A stretch of 57,228 nt of DNA from Escherichia phage PHB10, in sequence record MK524177.1. The stretch is one strand, 5' to 3'. The translations under genes and the position numbers were made by a program. The first letter of the stretch is position 1. Every line of letters starts with the position of its first letter. Below the pieces are notes generated by a model, which was not told the DNA's origin, ran no database searches, and worked only from the letters and a program-made list of their open reading frames with translations. Positions 204 through 57,104 of the stretch are shown here, piece by piece.

Positions 204-1007
204 TCAAAGGTATCTTTTCTTTAGATCTTCAAGCCTGCTGTTTTCTTGCTCTGTAAAGCCAGAAGCATCAAACATCGCTTCTTTATTTGCACCATTTACT
301 CTCGTTACTGTAACTGTGAAGACCGCATCAGCTGGAGCATCAACCTGCCCCCATTCAGAAAACTTATTCGGAGCCAATGCCCAAGTAGCTTCTTCACCCG
401 GTTCAAGCCCGCCAGCAATTTCGTAGTTAAAATCTTTTTCCAGCCATGGAACTGAACGTCCATCGCTGGCTATCACACCATTGAAGTACACACGGGAAAT
501 AGCTTTATCAGTATTGTTTTTCACAACAAGGCGAATAATAGGTTGTGGCTTCCCATACTCTTCAGGTTCCAGGCTAAATCGAGATGATAGAACCTGTACT
601 TTTTTGAGTTCTTCTTTGGCCTTCTCAGAGTCAGCTTTTTTCTGTTCAAGCTCTTTGATTTCCTGAATAGCCTGCTCTTTCTGCTTAAGTTCCCTCTCGG
701 CAGTTACTTGCTGAGCATAAGAGATGATTTCCTCTCCAGTTTTGCCAGACAGGGGCTCGCGCATCTTCTTGCTTAGATCTTCTTTGTCACTTTCTGACGA
801 TGCTCGCATTAGGTCAGCCATATTAATGTTACTGAACGCTACGACCTTTAAAGCGCTATCAAATTCTTCCCGTTTATTTTCCGGAAGAGATTCTCTGACC
901 TTGGCTATAGATGATTTCATTGCGTCATCAGTTGATGAGTCAATTTTAGGTTTATCGCACCCGGCTAATAAGAAGGAAAGAAATAACACACCTACAATTT
1001 TTTTCAT
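204..1007 (-). CDS. lipoprotein of unknown function (moron between tape measure gene and M)
   Basis: Signal peptide with lipobox MKKIVGVLFLSFLLAGC; Lys/Glu-rich coiled-coil middle; lower GC by eye; lambda has no gene between H and M. Confidence 0.65.
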   Translation of the reverse strand: MKKIVGVLFLSFLLAGCDKPKIDSSTDDAMKSSIAKVRESLPENKREEFDSALKVVAFSNINMADLMRASSESDKEDLSKKMREPLSGKTGEEIISYAQQVTAERELKQKEQAIQEIKELEQKKADSEKAKEELKKVQVLSSRFSLEPEEYGKPQPIIRLVVKNNTDKAISRVYFNGVIASDGRSVPWLEKDFNYEIAGGLEPGEEATWALAPNKFSEWGQVDAPADAVFTVTVTRVNGANKEAMFDASGFTEQENSRLEDLKKRYL

Positions 1008-18746: not shown

Positions 18747-19580
18747 CTATTTTGTTATCTGCTTCAGCTGCGCATCAGCCCAAGCTTCTTCGATATCAAA
18801 CTTGGTGATTAACTGATCGTAAAATGGCTTAACAGACTTCTTCCAGCTATCGAGGCTGATTGTATCTGTTATCTGACACACCGCGGCGTAAGCCTCAGTG
18901 GAAGGGATTCGTTCATACCCCCGCCCGCTGCAGCGCTTGCAATGAGCCAGAACCGGAACGCCCTGCTTTTCTGTAAGAGCTCGGTTAATGGCTTTCCCGC
19001 GTCCATGGCAATCTCTACAGGCACAACTAACGACCTTCTTGCCCTTACACTGAGGGCAGAGAACGCGCGCTATCTCCCTGACCCGTCTGCGCACCTCGTA
19101 CTCAGAAGGTCGAATATCTTCGACGCCCATGTGCAAAGACATCTTCACGAATTTCTTCTCTTTAGCCGGAGTGTGAGACTTCATGCTGAATACATCAGCG
19201 TCAATAAACCCTTCCCCATTGCAGCCATCGCACTGCTTCACGCTGGCGGCGCTGCGGGAATAGTCCTCGAACGCGAAGGTGGCCAACTGATGCATCACCA
19301 GTGGCTTAACCCCGGCATCCAGTTTGCGCAGCGCAGCCACCCGATCGCACTTGAACAGCGCATACTGGGCCAGCAATTCGATCGCCCTCTCCCGGTCATT
19401 GTTGCTGATACCCATCTTCCCGAGAAAAGCGCTGTAACCCAAAGCTGCCCGTTCCTGCGTCATGCCCATAGCGGCCATGATATCCGTCCCGGTTAAAGAG
19501 TCTGACGCCGTTGCACGCGGAGAGTCGCTAATCATCGTCGATTTGGCGAAGTGATATTTAAGGGTGTTTTCAAGATTCAT
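18747..19580 (-). CDS. late-gene antiterminator Q-like protein with four CxxCxGxG zinc-finger repeats, putative
   Basis: Position between rusA and the lysis leader; repeats [32 protein letters not shown]. Confidence 0.55.
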
Positions 19581-41032: not shown

Positions 41033-41245
41033 ATGTCGCAGGTAATATTTAACGAAGAATGGGTTGTTGGCGCAAGGCTCACAGAAAAAACAGGCCTGAC
41101 CGAACGACAGATTGAGAAGTATCGCCAGGGCTGTTGGGTGGAAGGTGTCCATTTTAAACGGGTTTCTCCTTCCGGAGAAAAAACCTTGCGTGGCACAACC
41201 TGGTACAACTATCCGAGAATTAATCAGTTAATAAGGGATGCGTAA
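41033..41245 (+). CDS. xis: excisionase
   Basis: 70 aa basic protein immediately upstream of and overlapping int. Confidence 0.7.
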
Positions 41246-42485
41246 GATGGCAGCTATGCCTACAGGTGTCGAAATCAGAAACAATAAGATTTGTATCTGG
41301 TTTATGTACCGGGGAAAGCGTTGCCGCGAAATTCTCAAAGGTTGGATTAACACTCCGGCGAACATCAAAAAAGCCGGAAATCTTCGGGCTGTGATCGTTA
41401 GTGAGATCAACCTTGGAGAGTTTGATTACCACCAGCGCTTTCCTTCATCGTCCAGAGCAAAAAAAACCGTAACCACTGTTTCAGTTCAAACCTTTTCAGA
41501 GCTGTGTGAACTGTGGACGAGCATTAAAGAAACCGAAATTAGCGCGAATACCATGCGTAAGACGCGCTCACAACTCGGTACGTTAATGCACATCATTAAC
41601 GGAGATACGCCTGTTTCAACTATACGCCACAGCGACATTCTGAAATACAGGAAGGAGCTGTTGAACGGTGAGACACTTTACCTGGCAAATCCCAGAAGTA
41701 ACAAACAGGGACGCACTGTGCGTACCGTGAACAACTATATATCGCTTCTGTGCTCCCTTCTTCGGTTTGCACACAAATCTGGCTTTATCAGTGGCAAACC
41801 ATTTGAAGGGATCAAGAAACTACACAAAGGGAAAGTAAAACCGGATCCTTTAACGAAGCAGGAGTTTAGTTTGCTTGCGGCATCCGAGCGTGGCCAAAGC
41901 CTCAATATGTGGACGTTCGCAGTTTATACTGGTGTCCGTCATGGAGAGCTTGCAGCTCTTGCCTGGGAAGATATCGACTGGGAAAAAGGTACGGCTCATA
42001 TACAGCGCAACCTTAATGCGCTAGGAATGTTCGTCCCACCAAAAACCGATGCAGGTGATCGAGTTATCACGCTATTAGAGCCGGCACTTGAAGCCTTGAA
42101 AGCACAGCGCAAGCTAACAGCGCTGCAGCCTAAAACCGAAATTGTCTTTAATCATCGCGAGTATGGCGCAGTGGAACATCAAAGCCTGCGATTCGTTTTC
42201 ATACCCCGGATGCGCAAAGGAGAACAGAAAGCCTACTACTCTTTATCGAGCATCGGTGCGAGATTCAACGCAGCTGTAAATCGTGCTGGTATTCGCCGCC
42301 GGAATCCGTACCATACGCGGCATACTTTTGCCTGCTGGCTTTTATCTGCCGGCGCTAACCCGTCTTTCATAGCCAGCCAGATGGGGCATGAAAACGCGCA
42401 AATGGTTTATGAAGTCTACGGTGCGTGGATTGAAGAAATGAATGGCGAACAGGTGCTGATGCTTAACGATAAGCTGGCACGCTGA
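41238..42485 (+). CDS. int: tyrosine integrase (lambda-type with N-terminal arm-binding domain)
   Basis: C-terminal catalytic motifs (R...[28 protein letters not shown]...Y); 415 aa; adjacent to the repeat-flanked att region. Confidence 0.9.
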
Positions 42486-43738: not shown

Positions 43739-44037
43739 TTTACGAGACAAATATTTTCCTAATGGCAATCCAGATTTGACTATACAGGATTGGTTAATAA
43801 TAGCCAAACCTATTTTATTGGCCTTCCGGAAGGCTAAAATAAAATTTGCTTAATCTTTCAGCACGTGCCTTAATGGTTTGGCTGATTCATTGCGATGATG
43901 AATCTAACTTTTCCAAAAGCCGTTCTCATAACTAGGTGTTATCTCTGATATCCCTCCTTTTGAGTCCATACATATACCAGCATACGTTTCTTATCATGAG
44001 CTTGCTTGTCAGTTTGAAATGTTCAAACGGAGTTTGT

Positions 44038-44256
44038 ATGTCATCTAAAATCATAGGTCTTGTTAAGTGGTTTAACGAAGATAAGGGGTTTGGCTTTATC
44101 TCCCCACTTGATGGAAGTAAAGATGTTCTTGTTCACACTTCTTCCCTGCGGGGAGAAACATTTAATACTCTTTTTGAAGGACAAAAAGTCAAATTCGCTA
44201 TCATAGCTGGAACTAAAGGTCCAATCGCTGCCAATGTAACACTTTGCGATAGATAA
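44038..44256 (+). CDS. cold-shock-domain protein (CspA family)
   Basis: [35 protein letters not shown]; start 44038 with GGAG SD. Confidence 0.85.
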
Positions 44257-45926: not shown

Positions 45927-47195
45927 TCATCTAACTTTTATTAGGTCTGAATACCTCGTAGTATATCGTGGAGATAACATATCCCGTTTCATCTGCCACT
46001 GCTGCTGTATGCCCTGCCCGGCAAAGTAAAGCGTTCCTTTTCCATCTTTCGCGTTCAAGTGATCGAGCACCTCCATCAACTTATCGCTTCCTGCGCGTGG
46101 AGCGTTCTCATCGAAAAGGTTCAACTGCGCCACCCCTTGGCTGAAAAAATCTCCCAGCATGATTCCAGCCTTTTGATAGCGATAGCCATCCTTCCAGATT
46201 TTGTCCAGGCACTTTACCGCGGCGTTGATTATGTCGCGGGAATCCTGTGTAGGGGTGAGAAGCTTCATGGACGCGCTGTTACCGTAATATGGCTCGTTAA
46301 GCGCAAAGGGAGAGGTTTTCACGAACGCAGAAATAAAGCGGCAGTACTGATGCTCTCCCCGCAACTTTTCTGCGCCTCGGGCCGCATAACTGCAAATGGC
46401 CTGCCTCATTTGTTCGTAATCAGTGACGCGTTCACCGAATGACCTGCTACAGACGATCTCCTGCTTTGCCGGCGCAAATTCCTCCAGCTCGAGACAGGGC
46501 TCGCCGCGCAGCTCCCGGACAGTTCGCTCCAGGACGACATTAAAGTGTTTGCGGATAATCCACGTGCTTTGTTCAGAAAGGTCCAGAGCTGTTTTGATGC
46601 CCATGGCATTCAGCTTCTTACTGATGCGCCTGCCTACGCCCCATACATCTTCTACTGGCACGATGTCGAGCAATCGGCGCTGGCGGTCGATATTGGATAA
46701 ATCAACTACCCCTCCCGTTTGCCGCTGCCATTTCTTCGCGGCGTGGTTGGCCAGCTTGGCCAGTGTCTTTGTCTGGGCAATTCCAATCCCGACAGTCAGG
46801 TGCGTCCGCTTCAGAACGGTAGCGCGGATTTCTTTGCCGAACTCAGTAAGATCCCGGCAATTGCGAACACCTGTTAGGTCACAAAATGCTTCATCGATAC
46901 TGTAAATTTCTACGCGAGGGCTCAACTCCTCCAGTGTGGTCATTACTCGATTCGACATGTCTGCGTACAGCTCGTAGTTACTGCTGAAGCAAACAACCCC
47001 AGCGCGCCGAAATAAGTCCTTTTGCTTGAAGAAAGGCTCTCCCATTGTAATTCCAGCCGCCTTGGCCTCGGCGCTGCGCGCGATTACGCAGCCGTCATTG
47101 TTCGAAAGAACAACCACTGGCCGCCCTTTCAAATCGGGACGAAACACCGTCTCGCATGATGCGTAGAACGAATTCACGTCGCAGAGCGCAAACAT
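45927..47195 (-). CDS. umuC: translesion DNA polymerase V catalytic subunit UmuC
   Basis: Y-family polymerase N-terminus [15 protein letters not shown]; 422 aa; directly downstream of umuD. Confidence 0.9.
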
Positions 47196-47197
47196 AC

Positions 47198-47617
47198 TCA
47201 GCTCGCCGATTTGACGATGAAAGTAACAACGCCGAAAACGTCCAGCGTATCTTCGCTGCCTACAACAATCGGACTGTAGGCGCTATTCATTGGGATGAGT
47301 TGGACATTTGGACGCAACTGCAAACGCTTAACAGTGAATTCCCCTTCAACCGCGGCGATGACAATGTCACCGTGCTCAGCCGTGCGCGAACTATCCACCA
47401 CCAGCAGATCACCGTCGCTTATCCCGGCTTCGATCATTGAATCCCCCGCGGCTTTGACGAAATATGTAGAGCTCGGGTGAGCGACAAGTAACTCATTGAG
47501 ATCGATACGCTGTTCAACGTAATCAGCTGCGGGGCTTGGGAAACCACACTGTACTAAGTCACTGAAAAGCGGAAGAGCGATAATATCTCGCAGTTCTGTT
47601 GGCCTGATGAATTCCAT
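47198..47617 (-). CDS. umuD: UmuD (LexA-like S24 peptidase, polymerase V accessory subunit)
   Basis: 139 aa from MEFIRP; Ser-Lys dyad context (AAGDSM ... VKRL). Confidence 0.9.
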
Positions 47618-47632
47618 TGCACACACCTCAAA

Positions 47633-47652
47633 TACTGTTTTTATATACAGTA
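47633..47652 (-). promoter_or_regulatory. LexA (SOS) box upstream of umuDC
   Basis: TACTGTTTTTATATACAGTA fits CTGT-N8-ACAG, 16 nt upstream of the umuD start. Confidence 0.8.
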
Positions 47653-47858
47653 GTTTTATTTGTAAGTGTCCGCAAGATACAGGCCCTATCGTCACTGCTT
47701 AAAGCTTCGCCGTTTCGTTTCTAAGTTTATCTCTCGTTTCGAATTATCTCTTTTGTAAATTTTTCAATAATGGCGCAGATGTAAGCAGATTTGAGGGAGA
47801 CAAAGCCCGTTAAATGCCAGAACGGGCTGCGACTGAAAGCTAAGTCTTCATGATTCCG

Positions 47859-49406
47859 CTATTTTTGCTTAAGCTCCTGGAGCTCTTTCTGTGTTGCCTC
47901 CAGCTGTTTAATGACGTAGTTCAGTGCCAACACGGTATCAAGCATGATGACGTTGCTATCCAGCGCTAACGTATCGTCAGCATCAACCCTGTTGCCTTCA
48001 CCATCAAATTTCGGTGCTGCAGGGACCAACGTTACGTACTCACTGTCGATCTTCATGACATCCTGAGCGATAACACCTCGGCGAACTCTCTCCAAAGGGT
48101 CATCGTTGTATACGTAAGTTGCTGGCAGGAATTTCTTGATATTCTCGTATGACTGATAACCATCATCGTATTTCACACTATGTTTCAGTTCGATATCACA
48201 GTTTGGTTGTTTAGAGAAAATATAATTGCCCCCAAAACCACCACTGCCTGAAACTGAAATATCCGCGGTAACGGTATTAAACGAGAAAATACGCGTTCCT
48301 GCAGATCCGCTATCACCAATGGTTACAAGTTCAATAGATGGCCAGTTGCTTTTCCCCTGGGAAATAGATCCAAGAGCGGTAACGGCGTGATACCCCCCTG
48401 AGCAATAGGTATGCCACCTGCCAAATGGTACAAATCCACTATCGTTTGGAGTTGATAGGTTTGGGCGTGCAAACGATGTGTTCGTGCTGTAGCCGTTAAC
48501 AATATCTTGGTAACCGCCACCGTACCCCTCACCGGGGCCGATATGACTTTTAGACTGAAACGCACCATAAGGGTACCAGCGGAAATCAGCACCGGAGCTT
48601 ACACCGTCAAAGATGTTCATTTGTACCCGAGCTAAATCAGTTCCCGCGCCGCGTACTGCACCGAGCCGCCAGGTGCCCGAATAATAGTTACCAGAAAGCC
48701 AGTTAACATAATTCTCGGCCGGACCATCGGAGCCAACATTACCTAAAGTAATGGCTTTATTACCCCCACTACCAGTAGCGATACCGACCTCATTACCTGC
48801 GGTTGAGATTATGCTTCCTGTAACAGTACCGCCTAACTTTCCTTCAATGGTGTTAAGACGCGAATCATTCCCGGCCGCCACGGTTCCGGCAGCCGTTCCA
48901 ACGTTTTTGGTGGCGCTGTCTCCCAAATCGAGGTTTTTGCGAGCGTCTGCGGCATTCGTTGCGCCGGTTCCGCCGTCTGCGACAGCAAGCGCACCGTTGC
49001 TCCCTTTCTGTGCCAGTTTACCGATGCCAGGGATGGTTACGGAGGTGCCGTTGATGGTTACGGTGATGCTCTGATTGGCTGAGGTTGTGGCGAACGTATC
49101 CCACGCGCCAATATTCTCGTCATACTCTTTGATGAGCTGCGACATGGCCTGTGCCAGTCCGTCGACAGAGATATTGTCGGACACCAGGATTCCATACTTC
49201 TGGCCGCTCAACGCCGGGGAAGCAGCTGGCGTAACCGTCATTGACGTGGCGCTGTTCACGGATGAAATCTGGAACATCTGAACCGGGTTAGACATGACGA
49301 TAATCGTCTGGCCAGCGCGAACCTGGCTGGCCGGTGCCGTCCAGTTCGTGCCCGTGCCGGTGGCGGTGTTTCCGTTAATGGCGATGGTGCCAGTGTTATA
49401 AAGCAT
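47859..49406 (-). CDS. tail fibre protein with C-terminal intramolecular chaperone-like domain
   Basis: Gly/Thr/Ser-rich repeats; C-terminal region ending in coiled coil LEATQKELQELKQK; start MLYNTG at 49406 with GGAGAA SD. Confidence 0.65.
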   Translation of the reverse strand: MLYNTGTIAINGNTATGTGTNWTAPASQVRAGQTIIVMSNPVQMFQISSVNSATSMTVTPAASPALSGQKYGILVSDNISVDGLAQAMSQLIKEYDENIGAWDTFATTSANQSITVTINGTSVTIPGIGKLAQKGSNGALAVADGGTGATNAADARKNLDLGDSATKNVGTAAGTVAAGNDSRLNTIEGKLGGTVTGSIISTAGNEVGIATGSGGNKAITLGNVGSDGPAENYVNWLSGNYYSGTWRLGAVRGAGTDLARVQMNIFDGVSSGADFRWYPYGAFQSKSHIGPGEGYGGGYQDIVNGYSTNTSFARPNLSTPNDSGFVPFGRWHTYCSGGYHAVTALGSISQGKSNWPSIELVTIGDSGSAGTRIFSFNTVTADISVSGSGGFGGNYIFSKQPNCDIELKHSVKYDDGYQSYENIKKFLPATYVYNDDPLERVRRGVIAQDVMKIDSEYVTLVPAAPKFDGEGNRVDADDTLALDSNVIMLDTVLALNYVIKQLEATQKELQELKQK

Positions 49407-49420
49407 ATTTTCTCCAGGCA

Positions 49421-49447
49421 ATAAAAAACCCCGCCGAGGCGAGGTTT
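49421..49447 (-). terminator. terminator-like GC hairpin after the small lipoprotein gene
   Basis: GC hairpin followed on the minus strand by a U-run, just upstream of the fibre RBS. Confidence 0.4.
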
Positions 49448-49464
49448 GCATTCAAAGTCGTGAG

Positions 49465-49698
49465 TTATTTACATGTCGTGCTTGTGAATGTGTTCGCACT
49501 TACCCAACGCCAGTTGAAGGGATATCCGGCCCGGTATTGAGTCTGGTTGTTTTGTTTTCTAACGCCGTAAATCATAACGGTATTCTCATGGTCACCCATA
49601 TATGCCGTGCCGCTGCAAATAGGTTCCTGTTTCTCAAGTACACCAGCACAACCAGACAGCATTAAAGCGATCGCCATGCTGATAATTAGCCTTTTCAT
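49465..49698 (-). CDS. small lipoprotein (Cor/Llp-like superinfection-exclusion candidate)
   Basis: 77 aa, signal peptide with lipobox MKRLIISMAIALMLSGC, between tail tip genes and fibre. Confidence 0.5.
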   Translation of the reverse strand: MKRLIISMAIALMLSGCAGVLEKQEPICSGTAYMGDHENTVMIYGVRKQNNQTQYRAGYPFNWRWVSANTFTSTTCK

Positions 49699-49809
49699 TT
49701 TGAAAGTATCCAGAGGAATTCAGTAGGTTCGAAGATATCAATACAAAATCGATGGGTATAATTGATTATGTAGATCAATTATTTGTTATTGATCGCTCAA
49801 AACGATCAA

Positions 49810-50490
49810 TCAGTCATAGGCTGCGGTGTTGATGGCCGTCAATGCTATTCCTGTGGTTGTCCCTCCCGCTGCAGAACCAGTAGCTGTTGTCGAAGGCGCG
49901 GCATTTATCCTGGTCGACGAACCGTTAAAGCGGCAGCCTGCATAGGCTGTTATATTCACGATTGTTGGAGGCTTGGTATTGTTGTTCTGTACGATTTGTG
50001 AGCCCAGAATTGCAGGTGCTACCGCATAACTACCCTGCAACGTAACATCAATGTTAATCCCTCCCGTTGAGGCTCCTGGTGTTCCGACAGTAACGAGGTC
50101 AGTAAGCACGCGGCTTTCGTTTGTCAGTACCAGCTTTCCGGCTTCATCCCAGACAGCAAATCCCCAGTCGGGCAACGTTTGTGGAAAGATGGCAAAGATG
50201 TACGCCGTCAGAGTGTGTGACTGACCATAAGCGTTGCTTGAACCAACAAGAATGTTTCCTCCTGACCGGGTTGCCCCGACTGTAGTGGGCTGGGCTGTAT
50301 CACTCGTTTTGCAAAAAACCATCGCCGGATAAGAAGCATCCAGAGCTACCGTCGCAGAAGCACCGTGGTATGCCCCATTTGCCACTGAGTTAACCACTAC
50401 CTTTCTGTACAGACAAAACGGCGTTGACTGAGGAGTAATAAACGGATTTCCGCTTTCCAGCGCAATCAGTGCACCATAATCTGCCATCAT
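49810..50490 (-). CDS. tail-associated protein of unknown function
   Basis: 226 aa, Gly/Thr/Ser-rich, downstream of J. Confidence 0.4.
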   Translation of the reverse strand: MMADYGALIALESGNPFITPQSTPFCLYRKVVVNSVANGAYHGASATVALDASYPAMVFCKTSDTAQPTTVGATRSGGNILVGSSNAYGQSHTLTAYIFAIFPQTLPDWGFAVWDEAGKLVLTNESRVLTDLVTVGTPGASTGGINIDVTLQGSYAVAPAILGSQIVQNNNTKPPTIVNITAYAGCRFNGSSTRINAAPSTTATGSAAGGTTTGIALTAINTAAYD

Positions 50491-50789
50491 GCATTCTCCA
50501 CGAAGACCACCAGTTCACATTCCGAGGCCGGATAATTACCAATACCAACTTCGCTGGCAGTGCTGAGAGTGATGGTGTTCCCGTTAGCGATAATGCGTCG
50601 ACCCACCGAGACCGCGCCCTTATCAAGGGACACCGCAAATCCGACCTTCATCCCCGCCGGAATGGTAAAGGACCAGTTGCCCGAGGTTTGCCCCTCGGAA
50701 AGCTGAATACGCCCTACCACTGATACGGGTTTGATACCGTAGTTGTTCGGGATGCCGTTGGCGTCCCAGGTCTGAATACCCCAGGCCAT
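50487..50789 (-). CDS. tail-associated protein of unknown function
   Basis: 100 aa; start overlaps the J stop. Confidence 0.4.
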   Translation of the reverse strand: MAWGIQTWDANGIPNNYGIKPVSVVGRIQLSEGQTSGNWSFTIPAGMKVGFAVSLDKGAVSVGRRIIANGNTITLSTASEVGIGNYPASECELVVFVENA

Positions 50790-53700
50790 TAAAACACTCC
50801 TGTAAGTTTGCCTATCTGAACACGGAGCCTGTTAGCATCCCGAATGCTGATGGTGACGTTAGTCTGCTTCATGCCTCCGGAACTGTCGCTCCCGTAGTTC
50901 TGCATCGTTCCGTCTTTACCCCAGCGCCAGCCAGCGCTTCCGGCAACATAATTATTAGACTGCAGAGAATCCGTAATTTTACCGAACTGGATACTCGCAT
51001 CACGGAAGAACGCATCATTGATGAATGTCTGCCCGTTCTGGATAACAAATGGCAAAGAAACAGTGCTGCCAGCTTGGGAGGTAACGGCAAAACGGTCGGC
51101 CAGGAAGATAACCTGTGACTGCATCCCTGATGGCGTATTCTCCACCCCGATCCCCATTCCTGCAGCGTAATACTGGCCATTACTCGTTACCCCAACTTTG
51201 ATGTTGTACATCGCGCTGAGCTGGCCGTTTACGTTCGCAATGGCCTGGGCGTTCGTGGTGATAGAGGCAGTATGTCCATTGACTGTCGCCGTAATAGCAT
51301 TTATCTGCGTGGCTGTAGACTGCTGATAATTCGAAACCGTATCGCTCAGGCTGTTGATGGATGCCGTATTACCGTTGACGTTCGTTTGCAGACTCAGCAA
51401 TGCGCGTGCCGTTGCCTCCCTGTCATTGACGATCACCTCATCAATGCGGTCTAGCTGCGCGCTGTTACCGGCAACCGAAGCCGACAGGGTTTTACGTGTG
51501 GCCACCTGAGCGAGGTTGGCCTGGATTATCGCAATTGCCGAGTTCTTCACGCCTCCTGTCATGCCGTCCATCGAAACAGAAATCTCGTCTATCTTCACTT
51601 CGGCCTGCGCCAGCCCGTCAGCGTTCTCCTGGATGTCTTTCGCCTGCTGCTCGAGCTCGTCGGCATGCTTTTTAATGTCATCCGCCATGCCTGCAACTTT
51701 TTCGTTGCTGTCCACTGCGTTCTCGATCAGGTCTTTGAAGGTATCAGAGTCTTTCATTCCCTCCAGAATCACATCGGTGATGTCAGAAACATCGATACTT
51801 GCCTGTCCTCGCACCCATTCTGTGTACCCTGATTCGTTGCCGCTGCGGTCCACCAGCTGCGCGCGGTACCAGAAAATCTGCTCAGCCTTAAGGCCCATCT
51901 GCTGATATTTGCGCTGCGGGTAAGGCACATCGGCCAGCAGCATCGCATCTTCTTCGGTACCAGTCAGGCTGTACTGAATTTCCGTCTTCAGCGTGTCGTC
52001 GGTATTCGCCGGGAATCCCCAGTTGAGCTCGATACCGAATACCACGCTTTCAGAAGCGATGAAGCCAACCGGCTTCGGTGGATTGCCCACTTTACCCGTC
52101 AGCGTTTTCTCTTCTGAATAGCCCCAGCCTGACGAAATTTCGGCAGCATTGATGGCGCGCACGCGCACCAGGTAGCGCCCGGCATAAATCCCCGGGACGT
52201 CGAATGATGTGGTGGAGCTGCGCGGCACGTTAACCCAGTTCCCGTCGTTGCGGCGCCATTGCGCTTCATAGGCGATAGCGTTCTGCGCCTGGTCCCAGCT
52301 CACGCGCATCGTTTCGACACTGATATTTTGCTGCACCACAGAAAACGAGCTGATGACGATGTTCGCAGGCGGCGACTGGTTGCCCGGCGGGATCACGCTC
52401 ACCGGCCGCTGGTCAATGATGGCTCCGGTATCAATGCGATCGAATTTATCCGGATCGTGATTTGCACCGACGATTGTGAACGTGCCGTCATTATTATCAG
52501 TTACTGTAATAACGCGATACTGCTGTGCGTAGAGCTCATCAGACTCAATGACCCATACGGCCTCGGCCTGTGGAAGCTCGCTAAAGGCGGTTGTCACGGT
52601 AACCATTCCACCTGACAGGGACTGAATCGTCCGGGATTGGGTAATACCCGACGGCAGGTTTACCATTATCCTGTCACCGGCCTTAGCACTTGGCACCCGG
52701 TCAAGTTTGAGTACACGACCATTAACCGCGGATAATCGACCGCCTAAATCTCGGCCAGAGAGATTTCGGTCAGCGACAGCAATTATGTAGCCAGGCTGAG
52801 GAATATTGCCGTCCAGACCAACGTCAAACGTTACAATCCTATCTTTATTGTTGGTCAGGATCCCCCAGCGCCCTTTCCTGTTAGCCTCAGATTGCCGGGT
52901 GCATCCGATAGCGGTGATCTCAAGCTGGTTGAAACCATAGCGCGCCACCAGAGCCTGCTCGAAGACGGGCTCCATTGCGTCAGCATAGCCATTTGCCGGA
53001 TCCGACCAGGAAACAAGAGCGTTTGTGTAGCGACTTTTAGTTGTGCTACTGGAATACACAAATTTGCCGTCAACTACGTTAGCGTGCGTGTAGGTAAAAT
53101 CGACATCTCTGGGCATGTCTGCAAGGGCAACAATCTGGTCGTCTCCCCAGTAGGTCATACCTCGAAAAATGGCGGCAAAGTCTCGCAGCACAGTGTAAGC
53201 GTCATTTCGATCTTGAATGTATACGTTGCAGGTGTAACGCGGTTCAGTTCCGCTCCCCCCCTTACCATCCGGTACCAGTTGATCACAATACTGAGCGACC
53301 TGATAAAGGGTCCATTTATCAATATTGGCTGCTGTTAGCCGATTACCAAGGCCGAAGCGGTCAGTGACTACCAGATCGTAAAATATCCACGCAGGGTTAT
53401 CCGTCCATGCCCACTTAAATGCTCCCGTCCAGGTGCCGCTGTACGTTCGTGTTTCTGGGTCATAGGTATCGGGCACACGAATAACACGCCCGCGGGGCTC
53501 GCAAGAAATTTGCGGAATTGAGCCATTGAACTGGCTCGAATCAAATTCGATGTACAGTAGCGCGGTGTTCGGATAGCGCAATTTGGCGTCGATTACTTCT
53601 GTGAAGCTTTGCAGCGTCATCGTGTCGCCAATCTTAGCGCTATTTGCGTCTGCGGTAATCTTGCGCAGCCTGATGGTCCAGGTGCTGCCCGCCTGAGGTA

Positions 53701-54238
53701 AATCAATACGGTGGCTGCGTTCATAACCAGAGGTGGTTTTCCCGGTCACGCTGGTATTTAGCACCGTCTGCCAGGTACCGCCATCTGTCTGCAGGTCAAA
53801 TGCGTAGTTGACCGAATAGCCAACCAGATCGCCATCGTCCTCCTGTTTGAAGAGAGAAGGCCATTTTAGACGCAGGCGAACAGCTGAAAGCTGCGTATTG
53901 GTGAACGTGCGCGTCCACGCTGTAGAGCTGGAAACTTCGGAACCTACATTGATTTCATTTTCGGTACCTGGGATCCCTTGAATGTATTTTTGCGCCTGAG
54001 TTCCAGAACGAAACTCCCACGCCACGCCGCTGAAGTTCTGTGAACCATCTGCGTTCTCAAGTGCGGTGCCATCGAGATAAATATCGCGCGCAGTAAGTCC
54101 ACCAGCAAACTCCCCCTCTCCCAGCGCGAGAAGGATTTTTGCCTTGGCAACTGACTGCAGGTCGTCTGGCTGTTCTGTAGGAGTTCTTGAGCTTGAACTG
54201 CCGCCCTTGCGGCCTTTAATAGCGGTTGCTATAGCCAT
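50789..54238 (-). CDS. host specificity / central tail fibre protein J
   Basis: 1149 aa; lambda J-like length, composition and position after I. Confidence 0.9.
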   Translation of the reverse strand: MAIATAIKGRKGGSSSSRTPTEQPDDLQSVAKAKILLALGEGEFAGGLTARDIYLDGTALENADGSQNFSGVAWEFRSGTQAQKYIQGIPGTENEINVGSEVSSSTAWTRTFTNTQLSAVRLRLKWPSLFKQEDDGDLVGYSVNYAFDLQTDGGTWQTVLNTSVTGKTTSGYERSHRIDLPQAGSTWTIRLRKITADANSAKIGDTMTLQSFTEVIDAKLRYPNTALLYIEFDSSQFNGSIPQISCEPRGRVIRVPDTYDPETRTYSGTWTGAFKWAWTDNPAWIFYDLVVTDRFGLGNRLTAANIDKWTLYQVAQYCDQLVPDGKGGSGTEPRYTCNVYIQDRNDAYTVLRDFAAIFRGMTYWGDDQIVALADMPRDVDFTYTHANVVDGKFVYSSSTTKSRYTNALVSWSDPANGYADAMEPVFEQALVARYGFNQLEITAIGCTRQSEANRKGRWGILTNNKDRIVTFDVGLDGNIPQPGYIIAVADRNLSGRDLGGRLSAVNGRVLKLDRVPSAKAGDRIMVNLPSGITQSRTIQSLSGGMVTVTTAFSELPQAEAVWVIESDELYAQQYRVITVTDNNDGTFTIVGANHDPDKFDRIDTGAIIDQRPVSVIPPGNQSPPANIVISSFSVVQQNISVETMRVSWDQAQNAIAYEAQWRRNDGNWVNVPRSSTTSFDVPGIYAGRYLVRVRAINAAEISSGWGYSEEKTLTGKVGNPPKPVGFIASESVVFGIELNWGFPANTDDTLKTEIQYSLTGTEEDAMLLADVPYPQRKYQQMGLKAEQIFWYRAQLVDRSGNESGYTEWVRGQASIDVSDITDVILEGMKDSDTFKDLIENAVDSNEKVAGMADDIKKHADELEQQAKDIQENADGLAQAEVKIDEISVSMDGMTGGVKNSAIAIIQANLAQVATRKTLSASVAGNSAQLDRIDEVIVNDREATARALLSLQTNVNGNTASINSLSDTVSNYQQSTATQINAITATVNGHTASITTNAQAIANVNGQLSAMYNIKVGVTSNGQYYAAGMGIGVENTPSGMQSQVIFLADRFAVTSQAGSTVSLPFVIQNGQTFINDAFFRDASIQFGKITDSLQSNNYVAGSAGWRWGKDGTMQNYGSDSSGGMKQTNVTISIRDANRLRVQIGKLTGVF

Positions 54239-54985: not shown

Positions 54986-55597
54986 TTACTTATTTTTGGC
55001 TGACGGATTAGCAACTTCTGGGTGTTTTTTATTGAATTCTATAAAGCTACTTGGGCATTCCTTTGAAAGTAAATAATAATTTACTAAACATGCATCCGCC
55101 TTAGCTTCATCGCTCGAATGATACACACCATCTGCCAAAGATAATGTCGGAGCTAAATACCTGGCTTTAATCAACTCTTGCCCCAACGCCAAAGCATCCT
55201 TAGAAGTAGCTGCTGAACAAGACGTAACAGCACCGTCAAATAACGTCTTATTACCTTTGCAATTTAAGGACGCATCTAAGAAGGACTCGTGTAAATCGGT
55301 GCGCACTTGAATAAATGCAGGATCAGTAATATTTGAACCAGCCAAGATCCCTATCAGACCTAACCCACCTCCGATTGTAGCAATGGCTGAACCATTGGCG
55401 AGGTTCAAATCTCCCCATACCAACCATCGCAACAGGAAAAAACTCACTGCTACGGACGTTATCAAATATCCAAACCCAGTCCATAGATTGTGACTGTGCC
55501 CGAAGAAACTCAAGCATGCAAGCCCGACCCCAACGACAAATGGAACGCAGACAACGACCATTTTAATATAAAAATTATTCAAGTTGACAAATGCCAC
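54986..55597 (-). CDS. membrane protein of unknown function (moron inserted between K and I)
   Basis: About 3 N-terminal TM helices plus soluble C-terminal domain; AT-rich by eye; lambda K and I are adjacent; start uncertain (GTG 55597 or ATG 55561). Confidence 0.5.
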   Translation of the reverse strand: MAFVNLNNFYIKMVVVCVPFVVGVGLACLSFFGHSHNLWTGFGYLITSVAVSFFLLRWLVWGDLNLANGSAIATIGGGLGLIGILAGSNITDPAFIQVRTDLHESFLDASLNCKGNKTLFDGAVTSCSAATSKDALALGQELIKARYLAPTLSLADGVYHSSDEAKADACLVNYYLLSKECPSSFIEFNKKHPEVANPSAKNK

Positions 55598-56348: not shown

Positions 56349-57104
56349 TTAACTCCTGATCAAAGATGTTCCCGGAAAACCACCGAAAGGAAGTTCATTG
56401 TGTTCACCAAACCGAAGCTTGCAGGCGGTGAGCGTGCCGTTGCATTCATCCAATGAGGGATCGCTTACCGGATTGTTGTTTCTGTCGAAGTAAAGCGTGC
56501 CGGCATAATCGCACCCATCGCCGGTGCGGTACCTATTCCGGATGCACCATGTGCAAAGGGAATGCAACTGTCTGGTCGGAATCATCAATCCCTGCAGATC
56601 CATCGGGCTGGTAAGAACAAACTCGATACTTTCACCGGGAAGCTCACTATTTTTACCGTCGATATAGAAAACCCGCTTCCTCACCTGCAAGGGATCTGCT
56701 GTTGGATTTCCATCCGAGAAATTGCGCGCATCCAGGTAATGCGCAAAAGTGTCATGAATCGTAACTTTGGCCTGCAGCATATCGTCATAGGCCAGACAGA
56801 GCGCAGTGATAGAGCTGTCAATGTTGGCGACGGTGAGCGTCGGCTGGGCGCTACTGCCATCGGTTGACGCTTCCAGTCCCTCGAGCTTATATGGCCAGGC
56901 ACCATACTCTTCGCCCTGCCACCAGATACTCTTCGCCTTTAACTTTGATTCGTCGCCGCCAGCAGCCGCAATCTCTTCTTCAGTATGCGGGAGGTTATAA
57001 GCGTGAAAGCGCAGAACGTCGTCCAGACCAAACGCAGAACCGTCTACCTCAAGAAGACGTATTTTTTCACCCGGTTCGAGGTGTTGATAATCTTCAGTAA
57101 TCAT
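56349..57104 (-). CDS. minor tail protein L
   Basis: 251 aa with C-terminal Cys cluster CTWC...C...C as in lambda gpL; start overlaps the M stop (ATGA). Confidence 0.85.
   Translation of the reverse strand: MITEDYQHLEPGEKIRLLEVDGSAFGLDDVLRFHAYNLPHTEEEIAAAGGDESKLKAKSIWWQGEEYGAWPYKLEGLEASTDGSSAQPTLTVANIDSSITALCLAYDDMLQAKVTIHDTFAHYLDARNFSDGNPTADPLQVRKRVFYIDGKNSELPGESIEFVLTSPMDLQGLMIPTRQLHSLCTWCIRNRYRTGDGCDYAGTLYFDRNNNPVSDPSLDECNGTLTACKLRFGEHNELPFGGFPGTSLIRS

Follow-up and report, generated by a model that had tools for sequence, protein, structure and literature searches.

Cor, a superinfection-exclusion lipoprotein of phages HK022, N15, and phi80, inactivates FhuA, so that lysogens are protected from FhuA-requiring phages and ferrichrome uptake is lowered (PMC3594210). 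The Cor proteins of T1 and other Drexlerviridae, which belong to the same family, are likewise reported to block FhuA (PMC13164509). The phage T5 lipoprotein Llp, which sits in the inner leaflet of the outer membrane, binds FhuA's periplasmic face and remodels the FhuA plug; loops EL7 and EL8 collapse, and the receptor-binding protein cannot bind (PMC9586334; bioRxiv 10.64898/2026.03.26.714494). The disulfide of Llp is reported to be essential to its binding of FhuA (bioRxiv 10.64898/2026.03.26.714494). Cor has been proposed to act like Llp (PMC9586334; bioRxiv 10.64898/2026.03.26.714494), and the two proteins are reported to share a fold (bioRxiv 10.64898/2026.03.26.714494; PMC13164509). Here we describe the cor gene of Escherichia phage PHB10 (sequence record MK524177.1), found on the minus strand of the window, by which we mean the whole stretch of 57,228 nucleotides that was analyzed. 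We consider it highly probable that this gene encodes a Cor lipoprotein that excludes FhuA-dependent phages, and likely that it does so by Llp-like inactivation of FhuA.

The PHB10 protein belongs to one family with the Cor proteins of HK022 (gp27; 92% identity), phi80 (79%), N15 (gp24; 62%), and mEp167, and it differs from the UniRef entry Q6IWY0_9CAUD, named “Cor,” by a single residue (T40N; 99% identity). The record of phage mEp390 cites “AAT11800 Cor [Phage mEp167],” and we believe that Q6IWY0 is the experimentally studied mEp167 Cor, a link that is unconfirmed, no paper mentioning either Q6IWY0 or AAT11800. Like the Cor proteins of HK022, phi80, and N15, to which it is equal in length, the PHB10 protein has a lipobox and three cysteines, and its gene likewise follows J and homologs of N15 gp22 and gp23 and precedes a terminator and a side tail fiber gene. 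It departs from HK022, phi80, N15, and mEp167 in that the identical protein is found in Enterobacter rather than E. coli, and in that its carrier phage is larger (57 kb) and has a full umuDC operon beside the fiber gene, whereas the protein itself is no different. T1 Cor (35% identity) comes with the same three-gene cassette of gp22, gp23, and cor homologs; however, its cor lies on the strand opposite to the cassette, and T1 is virulent.

The cor gene and its lipoprotein product

The gene and its signal peptide are as follows.

49465..49698, minus strand: cor coding sequence, ATG start, encoding a 77-aa prolipoprotein with a predicted 61-aa mature part from Cys17 (open reading frame [ORF] list and family matches)
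49648..49698, minus strand: predicted signal peptide and lipobox L-S-G-C, codons 14 to 17 lying at 49648..49659 (translation, hydropathy, and alignment)

The NCBIfam equivalog model NF047972, “phage exclusion lipoprotein Cor,” which has a cutoff of 31 bits, matched residues 1 to 76 of 77 with 140.9 bits (E-value 9e-42), and PHROG 1119, “Cor superinfection exclusion protein,” was matched with an E-value of 1.6e-36. Because of these family E-values we take the ORF to be a real gene rather than a chance reading frame. Homologs were detected by tblastn in 238 phage genomes, where informative names are mostly Cor or superinfection exclusion protein, and RefSeq lists the identical protein, from 375 contigs, under the name “phage exclusion lipoprotein Cor [Enterobacter].” The family is compact, with just 35 matches at E ≤0.001 among 1.84 billion cluster representatives in an exhaustive search. 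Complete genomes of E. coli cover only about 30% of the 3.2-kb cor region, a low share that speaks against E. coli as host. Two different prophages in a single Enterobacter chromosome (GCA_040561195.1; JBBFQE010000001.1) encode the identical Cor, each behind a different J protein (1157 and 1165 aa).

The complete 77-aa translation is MKRLIISMAIALMLSGCAGVLEKQEPICSGTAYMGDHENTVMIYGVRKQNNQTQYRAGYPFNWRWVSANTFTSTTCK, and its N-terminal stretch, MKRLIISMAIALMLSGCAGV, has the anatomy of a lipoprotein signal peptide: a basic n-region (K2 and R3), a hydrophobic core with a Kyte-Doolittle maximum of 2.86 at residues 4 to 14 (11-residue averages), and the lipobox L14-S15-G16-C17, of which L14 and C17 are invariant in the alignment of Cor and Llp proteins. 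The 77-aa lipoprotein with an LSGC lipobox that had been proposed from the letters of the sequence is thus present at this locus. Cys17 is predicted to be the acylated residue. The residue at +2 after the lipid-modified Cys is Ala18, and under the Lol sorting rule an Ala at +2 predicts transfer to the outer membrane; lipidation and outer-membrane localization of Cor are therefore predicted. The same alignment has C17, C28, and C76 in every Cor protein and in T5 Llp. The mature part carries the motif RAGYPF(N/S)W, and across 39 mature sequences G42, P44, and F55 are invariant and Y43, F45, and W47 nearly so (mature-protein numbering). Size, signal peptide, and lipobox Cys are as expected of a Cor precursor (about 75 to 80 aa), and every defining feature of the Cor family that could be tested is present in the PHB10 gene.

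Misleading database names occur within this protein cluster: some JGI members are labeled “uncharacterized protein YceK,” and the record of phage ECP1 reads “lipase chaperone.” Such labels could be taken to favor a small lipoprotein unrelated to Cor (for example an Rz1-type o-spanin, Bor, or a host-type YceK). The curated Cor model, however, covers the full length of the protein, no Pfam family (the YceK family included) was matched at E-values up to 0.1, and the lysis genes and spanin sit elsewhere in the window, at about 15.5 to 16.6 kb. The family searches rule out an unrelated small lipoprotein, whose probability we put as negligible. No PADLOC model matched Cor, and a phmmer search of PDB sequences gave just weak, spurious matches to designed “Pizza” propeller proteins and did not find Llp. 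Judged by homology, it is close to certain that the gene is cor, the superinfection-exclusion (lysogenic conversion) lipoprotein gene known from FhuA-dependent siphophages, and what had been put forward as a Cor/Llp-like exclusion candidate proves to be a bona fide cor. The gene, family, cassette, and phenotype have already been described, and the protein is already correctly named in public databases; the PHB10 copy is ordinary, unusual only in host genus and in the larger phage that carries it.

A proposed Llp-like action on FhuA

The sequence-only reading had named Cor and Llp together as lipoproteins of lambdoid phages, which is right for Cor; Llp is a protein of lytic T5 with no detectable sequence relation to Cor, likeness between the two being a matter of fold alone. 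Cor and Llp (PDB 8A60 chain B and 7QJF) are 21% identical in a global alignment, in which the lipobox Cys and two further cysteines align. The gene neighborhoods differ as well: llp adjoins the gene of the T5 receptor-binding protein pb5, whereas the neighbors of PHB10 cor are the J cassette and the side tail fiber gene. An AlphaFold2 model of mature Cor, built from 39 family members, is all-beta with a mean pLDDT of 85.2, and this predicted structure has the fold described for Llp. In BFVD the model is matched best by a T1-like exclusion protein and by lipoproteins from T5-like phages. On the model, the likeness of Cor to Llp is one of fold that is not detectable by sequence, and the two proteins probably share a distant ancestry.

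Several points weigh against the explanation offered here. An hhalign comparison of the Cor profile with Llp gave an E-value of 0.81, that is, no sequence-profile relation, and Foldseek against the PDB was undiscriminating, placing Llp 36th (E-value 0.28, TM 0.58) in the company of Tudor and chromo barrels. A 2026 preprint on Llp (bioRxiv 10.64898/2026.03.26.714494) states that the way Cor itself works at the molecular level is yet to be elucidated, and a 2018 study (Arguijo-Hernandez et al.), as cited in PMC13164509, has Cor interacting with several other outer-membrane proteins. All functional data on Cor come from E. coli phages. The last 100 to 150 aa of PHB10 J are only 62 to 74% identical to those of HK022 and phi80, because of which the receptor specificity of J may have shifted. 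Finally, a scan for sigma-70 promoters between 49000 and 50600 found 0 consensus sites.

The main rival is that Cor makes FhuA unavailable via, or jointly with, further proteins of the outer membrane (OmpA, OmpC, OmpF, OmpW, LamB, as well as Slp) and does not bind the periplasmic face of FhuA directly. It draws on the citations of the 2018 study in reviews, on the preprint's statement about the mechanism of Cor, and on the missing sequence-profile link to Llp; we regard it as quite unlikely. The BFVD matches agree with the two recent reports of a shared Cor and Llp fold, and therefore we commit to Llp-like inactivation of FhuA, with the periplasmic and allosteric manner of Llp being, by analogy, the probable one.

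In this proposal, export of the Cor precursor would be followed by acylation of Cys17 and by cleavage by signal peptidase II, and the mature protein of 61 residues would form a small beta-barrel, probably stabilized by a Cys28-Cys76 disulfide. Mature Cor would most likely bind FhuA, the TonB-dependent transporter of ferrichrome, on the periplasmic side and force it into a conformation useless to phage receptor-binding proteins, as T5 Llp does. The receptor block that had been envisaged for the lipoprotein would thus stand in a modified form, since by analogy with Llp it is probably achieved by binding at the periplasmic face (PMC9586334) and not by covering the receptor from outside. The phage itself and other FhuA-dependent phages (of the T1, T5, phi80, HK022, and N15 types) would be excluded, at a cost in ferrichrome uptake. 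The Rtp45-type lipoproteins of small, LptD-targeting siphophages are comparable in being small, periplasmic, encoded near the receptor-binding locus, and active in blocking the phage's own outer-membrane receptor. They differ in that their target is LptDE and in that they displace extracellular loops physically, rather than by long-range allostery on a TonB-dependent transporter.

Tail-tip cassette, terminator, and receptor type

The genes and signals on either side of cor are these.

50789..54238, minus strand: J, the central tail fiber and host specificity protein, 1149 aa, with a C-terminus of the FhuA-dependent phage type
50487..50789, minus strand: 100-aa homolog of N15 gp22, first gene of the cor cassette (PHROG 557, E-value 3.4e-34; synteny)
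49810..50490, minus strand: 226-aa homolog of N15 gp23, second gene of the cor cassette (PHROG 425, E-value 3.5e-72; synteny)
49416..49447, minus strand: intrinsic terminator, between cor (17 nt past its stop codon) and the closely following ribosome-binding site (RBS) of the fiber gene (terminator scan, fold, and conservation)
47859..49406, minus strand: side tail fiber gene, 515 aa, with a C-terminal S74 intramolecular chaperone domain (Pfam PF13884; PHROG 1980, E-value 3.1e-85)

The local order is therefore J, gp22-like, gp23-like, cor, terminator, and side tail fiber, which bears out the placement of the lipoprotein gene between tail-tip genes and fiber: J and two small genes precede it, and the fiber gene comes directly after it. 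Identical order, including an annotated terminator, is found in N15, phi80, HK140, and mEp390. In HK022 the spacing from J to cor is equal, the intervening genes and the terminator being unannotated in its record, and in Enterobacter chromosomal prophages an identical cor follows the same genes, in gene tables that list no terminators. No such cassette follows J in lambda or HK97, which use LamB. The three-gene cassette has been described as a consistent feature of the FhuA-targeting phages T1, HK022, N15, ES18, phi80, and phages of the BASEL collection (PMC13164509). The J-to-fiber tail-tip region of PHB10 is 86.5% identical in DNA to that of mEp390 over about 5.5 kb; outside it, known phages match at the DNA level in scattered short segments alone.

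Because it carries cor, PHB10 is very probably a FhuA-dependent phage, and cor can serve as an annotation marker of this property. We infer from the sequence comparisons that FhuA is the target of Cor in the PHB10 host. J provides an independent test of the receptor. Over its full length, PHB10 J is closest to J of mEp390 (92% identity), and it is 84% identical to J of HK022, 69% to that of N15, and 57% to that of phi80. Its last 100 to 150 aa, compared above with HK022 and phi80, are 51 to 58% identical to those of N15 and 45 to 50% to those of T1, and could not be aligned meaningfully with lambda or HK97.

The divergence at the J tip bears on a rival in which a Cor-family protein has been retargeted to another TonB-dependent transporter or another receptor of Enterobacter, in keeping with the changed tip. 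Cor-like proteins do occur in phages that use BtuB (PMC13164509), and the last 299 aa of PHB10 J are close to mEp390 alone (96% identity), all other phage records falling below 90%. Nevertheless, the J C-terminus can still be aligned over its whole length with those of HK022, phi80, N15, and T1, the full gp22/gp23/cor cassette that tracks FhuA use is present, and the lipoprotein shares 92% of its residues with HK022 Cor and all but one with the phage Cor entry Q6IWY0. Retargeting is accordingly most unlikely in our estimate, and FhuA is retained as the candidate target.

Neither the gp22-like nor the gp23-like protein matched Pfam, NCBIfam, or PADLOC, and signal peptides and hydrophobic segments are lacking in both the 226-aa and the 100-aa protein (maximum hydropathy over 19 residues 1.14 and 0.88, respectively). 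Instead of being membrane proteins, they may belong to the tail tip or take part in receptor recognition.

The terminator-like hairpin that had been noticed after the lipoprotein gene is borne out by folding and by annotation in relatives. Its 9-pair stem, with five G-C pairs, occupies 49447..49426 and reads, on the minus strand, AAACCTCGC-CTCG-GCGGGGTTT, followed by the T-run TTTATT; the 66-nt terminator region folds with −17.3 kcal/mol (z = −2.2). A rho-independent terminator is annotated at the equivalent position in HK140, mEp390, phi80, and N15, and in N15 the stem is preserved through changes in both arms (CCCTGC..GCAGGG vs. CCTCGC..GCGGGG). The mechanical start of the fiber ORF at 49451 overlaps this hairpin. 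An RBS, GGAGAA, at 49415..49410 and the ATG at 49406 are common to HK022, phi80, and mEp390, and PHROG alignments of the fiber begin at residue 15 or 16 of the mechanical ORF. For these reasons the fiber translation start is most likely the ATG at 49406 and not 49451.

Expression of cor and the carrier phage

Two further elements bear on how cor is transcribed.

49699..49809, minus strand: AT-rich spacer of 111 nt upstream of cor, containing two perfect ATTGAT(C)-based palindromes and a weak RBS
18747..19580: Q-like antiterminator, encoded on the strand that also carries the lysis, head, and tail genes

The cor gene of HK022 is annotated as a moron, and PHB10 cor shows the moron trait of having its own terminator directly downstream. 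We infer that cor is expressed in the lysogen, where the terminator would end the prophage-state transcript before the fiber gene. The upstream position of the Q-like antiterminator, and the strand that it shares with the lysis, head, and tail genes, also place cor inside the late operon. In lambdoid late operons, Q-antiterminated transcription passes terminators, and with a Q-like antiterminator upstream, late transcription in PHB10 would read through the cor terminator into the fiber gene. Cor made from the late operon in lytic growth too would prevent the adsorption of progeny to debris and to cells already infected.

A rival gives this last role precedence, making Cor mainly a late lytic function that shields progeny from infected cells and debris, and not a prophage-expressed moron of lysogenic conversion. 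The same-strand position of cor inside the late operon downstream of the Q-like antiterminator fits it, as do the lack of a consensus promoter upstream of cor in the scanned interval and the descriptions of Llp and T1 Cor as acting in lytic infection (bioRxiv 10.64898/2026.03.26.714494; PMC13164509). On the other side, exclusion of FhuA-dependent phages has been reported for lysogens of HK022, N15, phi80, and mEp167 (PMC3594210 among the sources), HK022 cor carries the moron annotation, and the conserved terminator immediately behind cor suits a transcription unit of its own. We hold a mainly lytic function to be unlikely and prefer expression of cor in the lysogen.

The spacer upstream of cor has 83% mean column identity with those of mEp390, HK140, HK022, phi80, and N15. 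Its palindromes are ATTGATCG-N7-CGATCAAT at 49788..49810 and ATAATTGAT-N7-ATCAATTAT at 49758..49782. It holds three GATC sites, and 3 of the 11 occurrences of ATTGATC in the window fall within 38 bp; as 9.4 occurrences are expected, the total of 11 is not above chance, and the local clustering alone is notable. Both palindromes are kept in mEp390 and HK140 (in HK140 with one base off at the outer end of the 9-nt arm), whereas in HK022 and phi80 they are broken without compensating change, which argues against an essential operator. That the ATTGAT(C) palindromes and the three Dam GATC sites form an operator making prophage cor expression conditional, for example as a regulator- or Dam-dependent on/off switch, is a very doubtful suggestion; if it were true, switching would resemble that of the gtr operons of phage O-antigen modification, and populations of lysogens would be mixed for FhuA function and phage resistance. 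A Fur box, which would have allowed coregulation with fhuA, was rejected, the best match covering 11 of 19 positions, a value reached by 69% of shuffles. An FNR site was likewise rejected: the half-sites TTGAT and ATCAA are present but are spaced by 7 and 11, not by 4.

If the proposed action of Cor is right, Enterobacter lysogens are predicted to resist other FhuA-dependent phages and to have reduced uptake of ferrichrome, albomycin, and colicin M, a resistance relevant to the choice of therapeutic phages against the Enterobacter cloacae complex. As a discovery the PHB10 gene has little weight, and it is no better suited than other copies to show how Cor acts structurally on FhuA or how cor is transcribed in lysogens.

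The window looks like a complete, circularly permuted genome of a temperate lambdoid phage of 57.2 kb, its ends being joined by the tail genes M (204..1007) and L (56349..57104). Two other genes were located in it.

41238..42485: integrase
43936..44256: cold-shock-domain gene

Between tail genes K and I, at 54986..55597, lies a gene for a strongly hydrophobic protein of 203 aa that resembles a multi-pass membrane protein and has no match in Pfam, PHROGs, or PADLOC. In HK140 and mEp390 this slot is taken by small lipoprotein genes, with a promoter annotated in mEp390, and for this reason the PHB10 gene may be another moron or exclusion gene. On the other side of cor, the fiber gene is adjoined by a complete umuD-umuC-like (DNA polymerase V) operon at 45927..47695, a position at which N15 and mEp390 have a UmuD-like gene only and mEp390, HK140, and phi80 have DinI.
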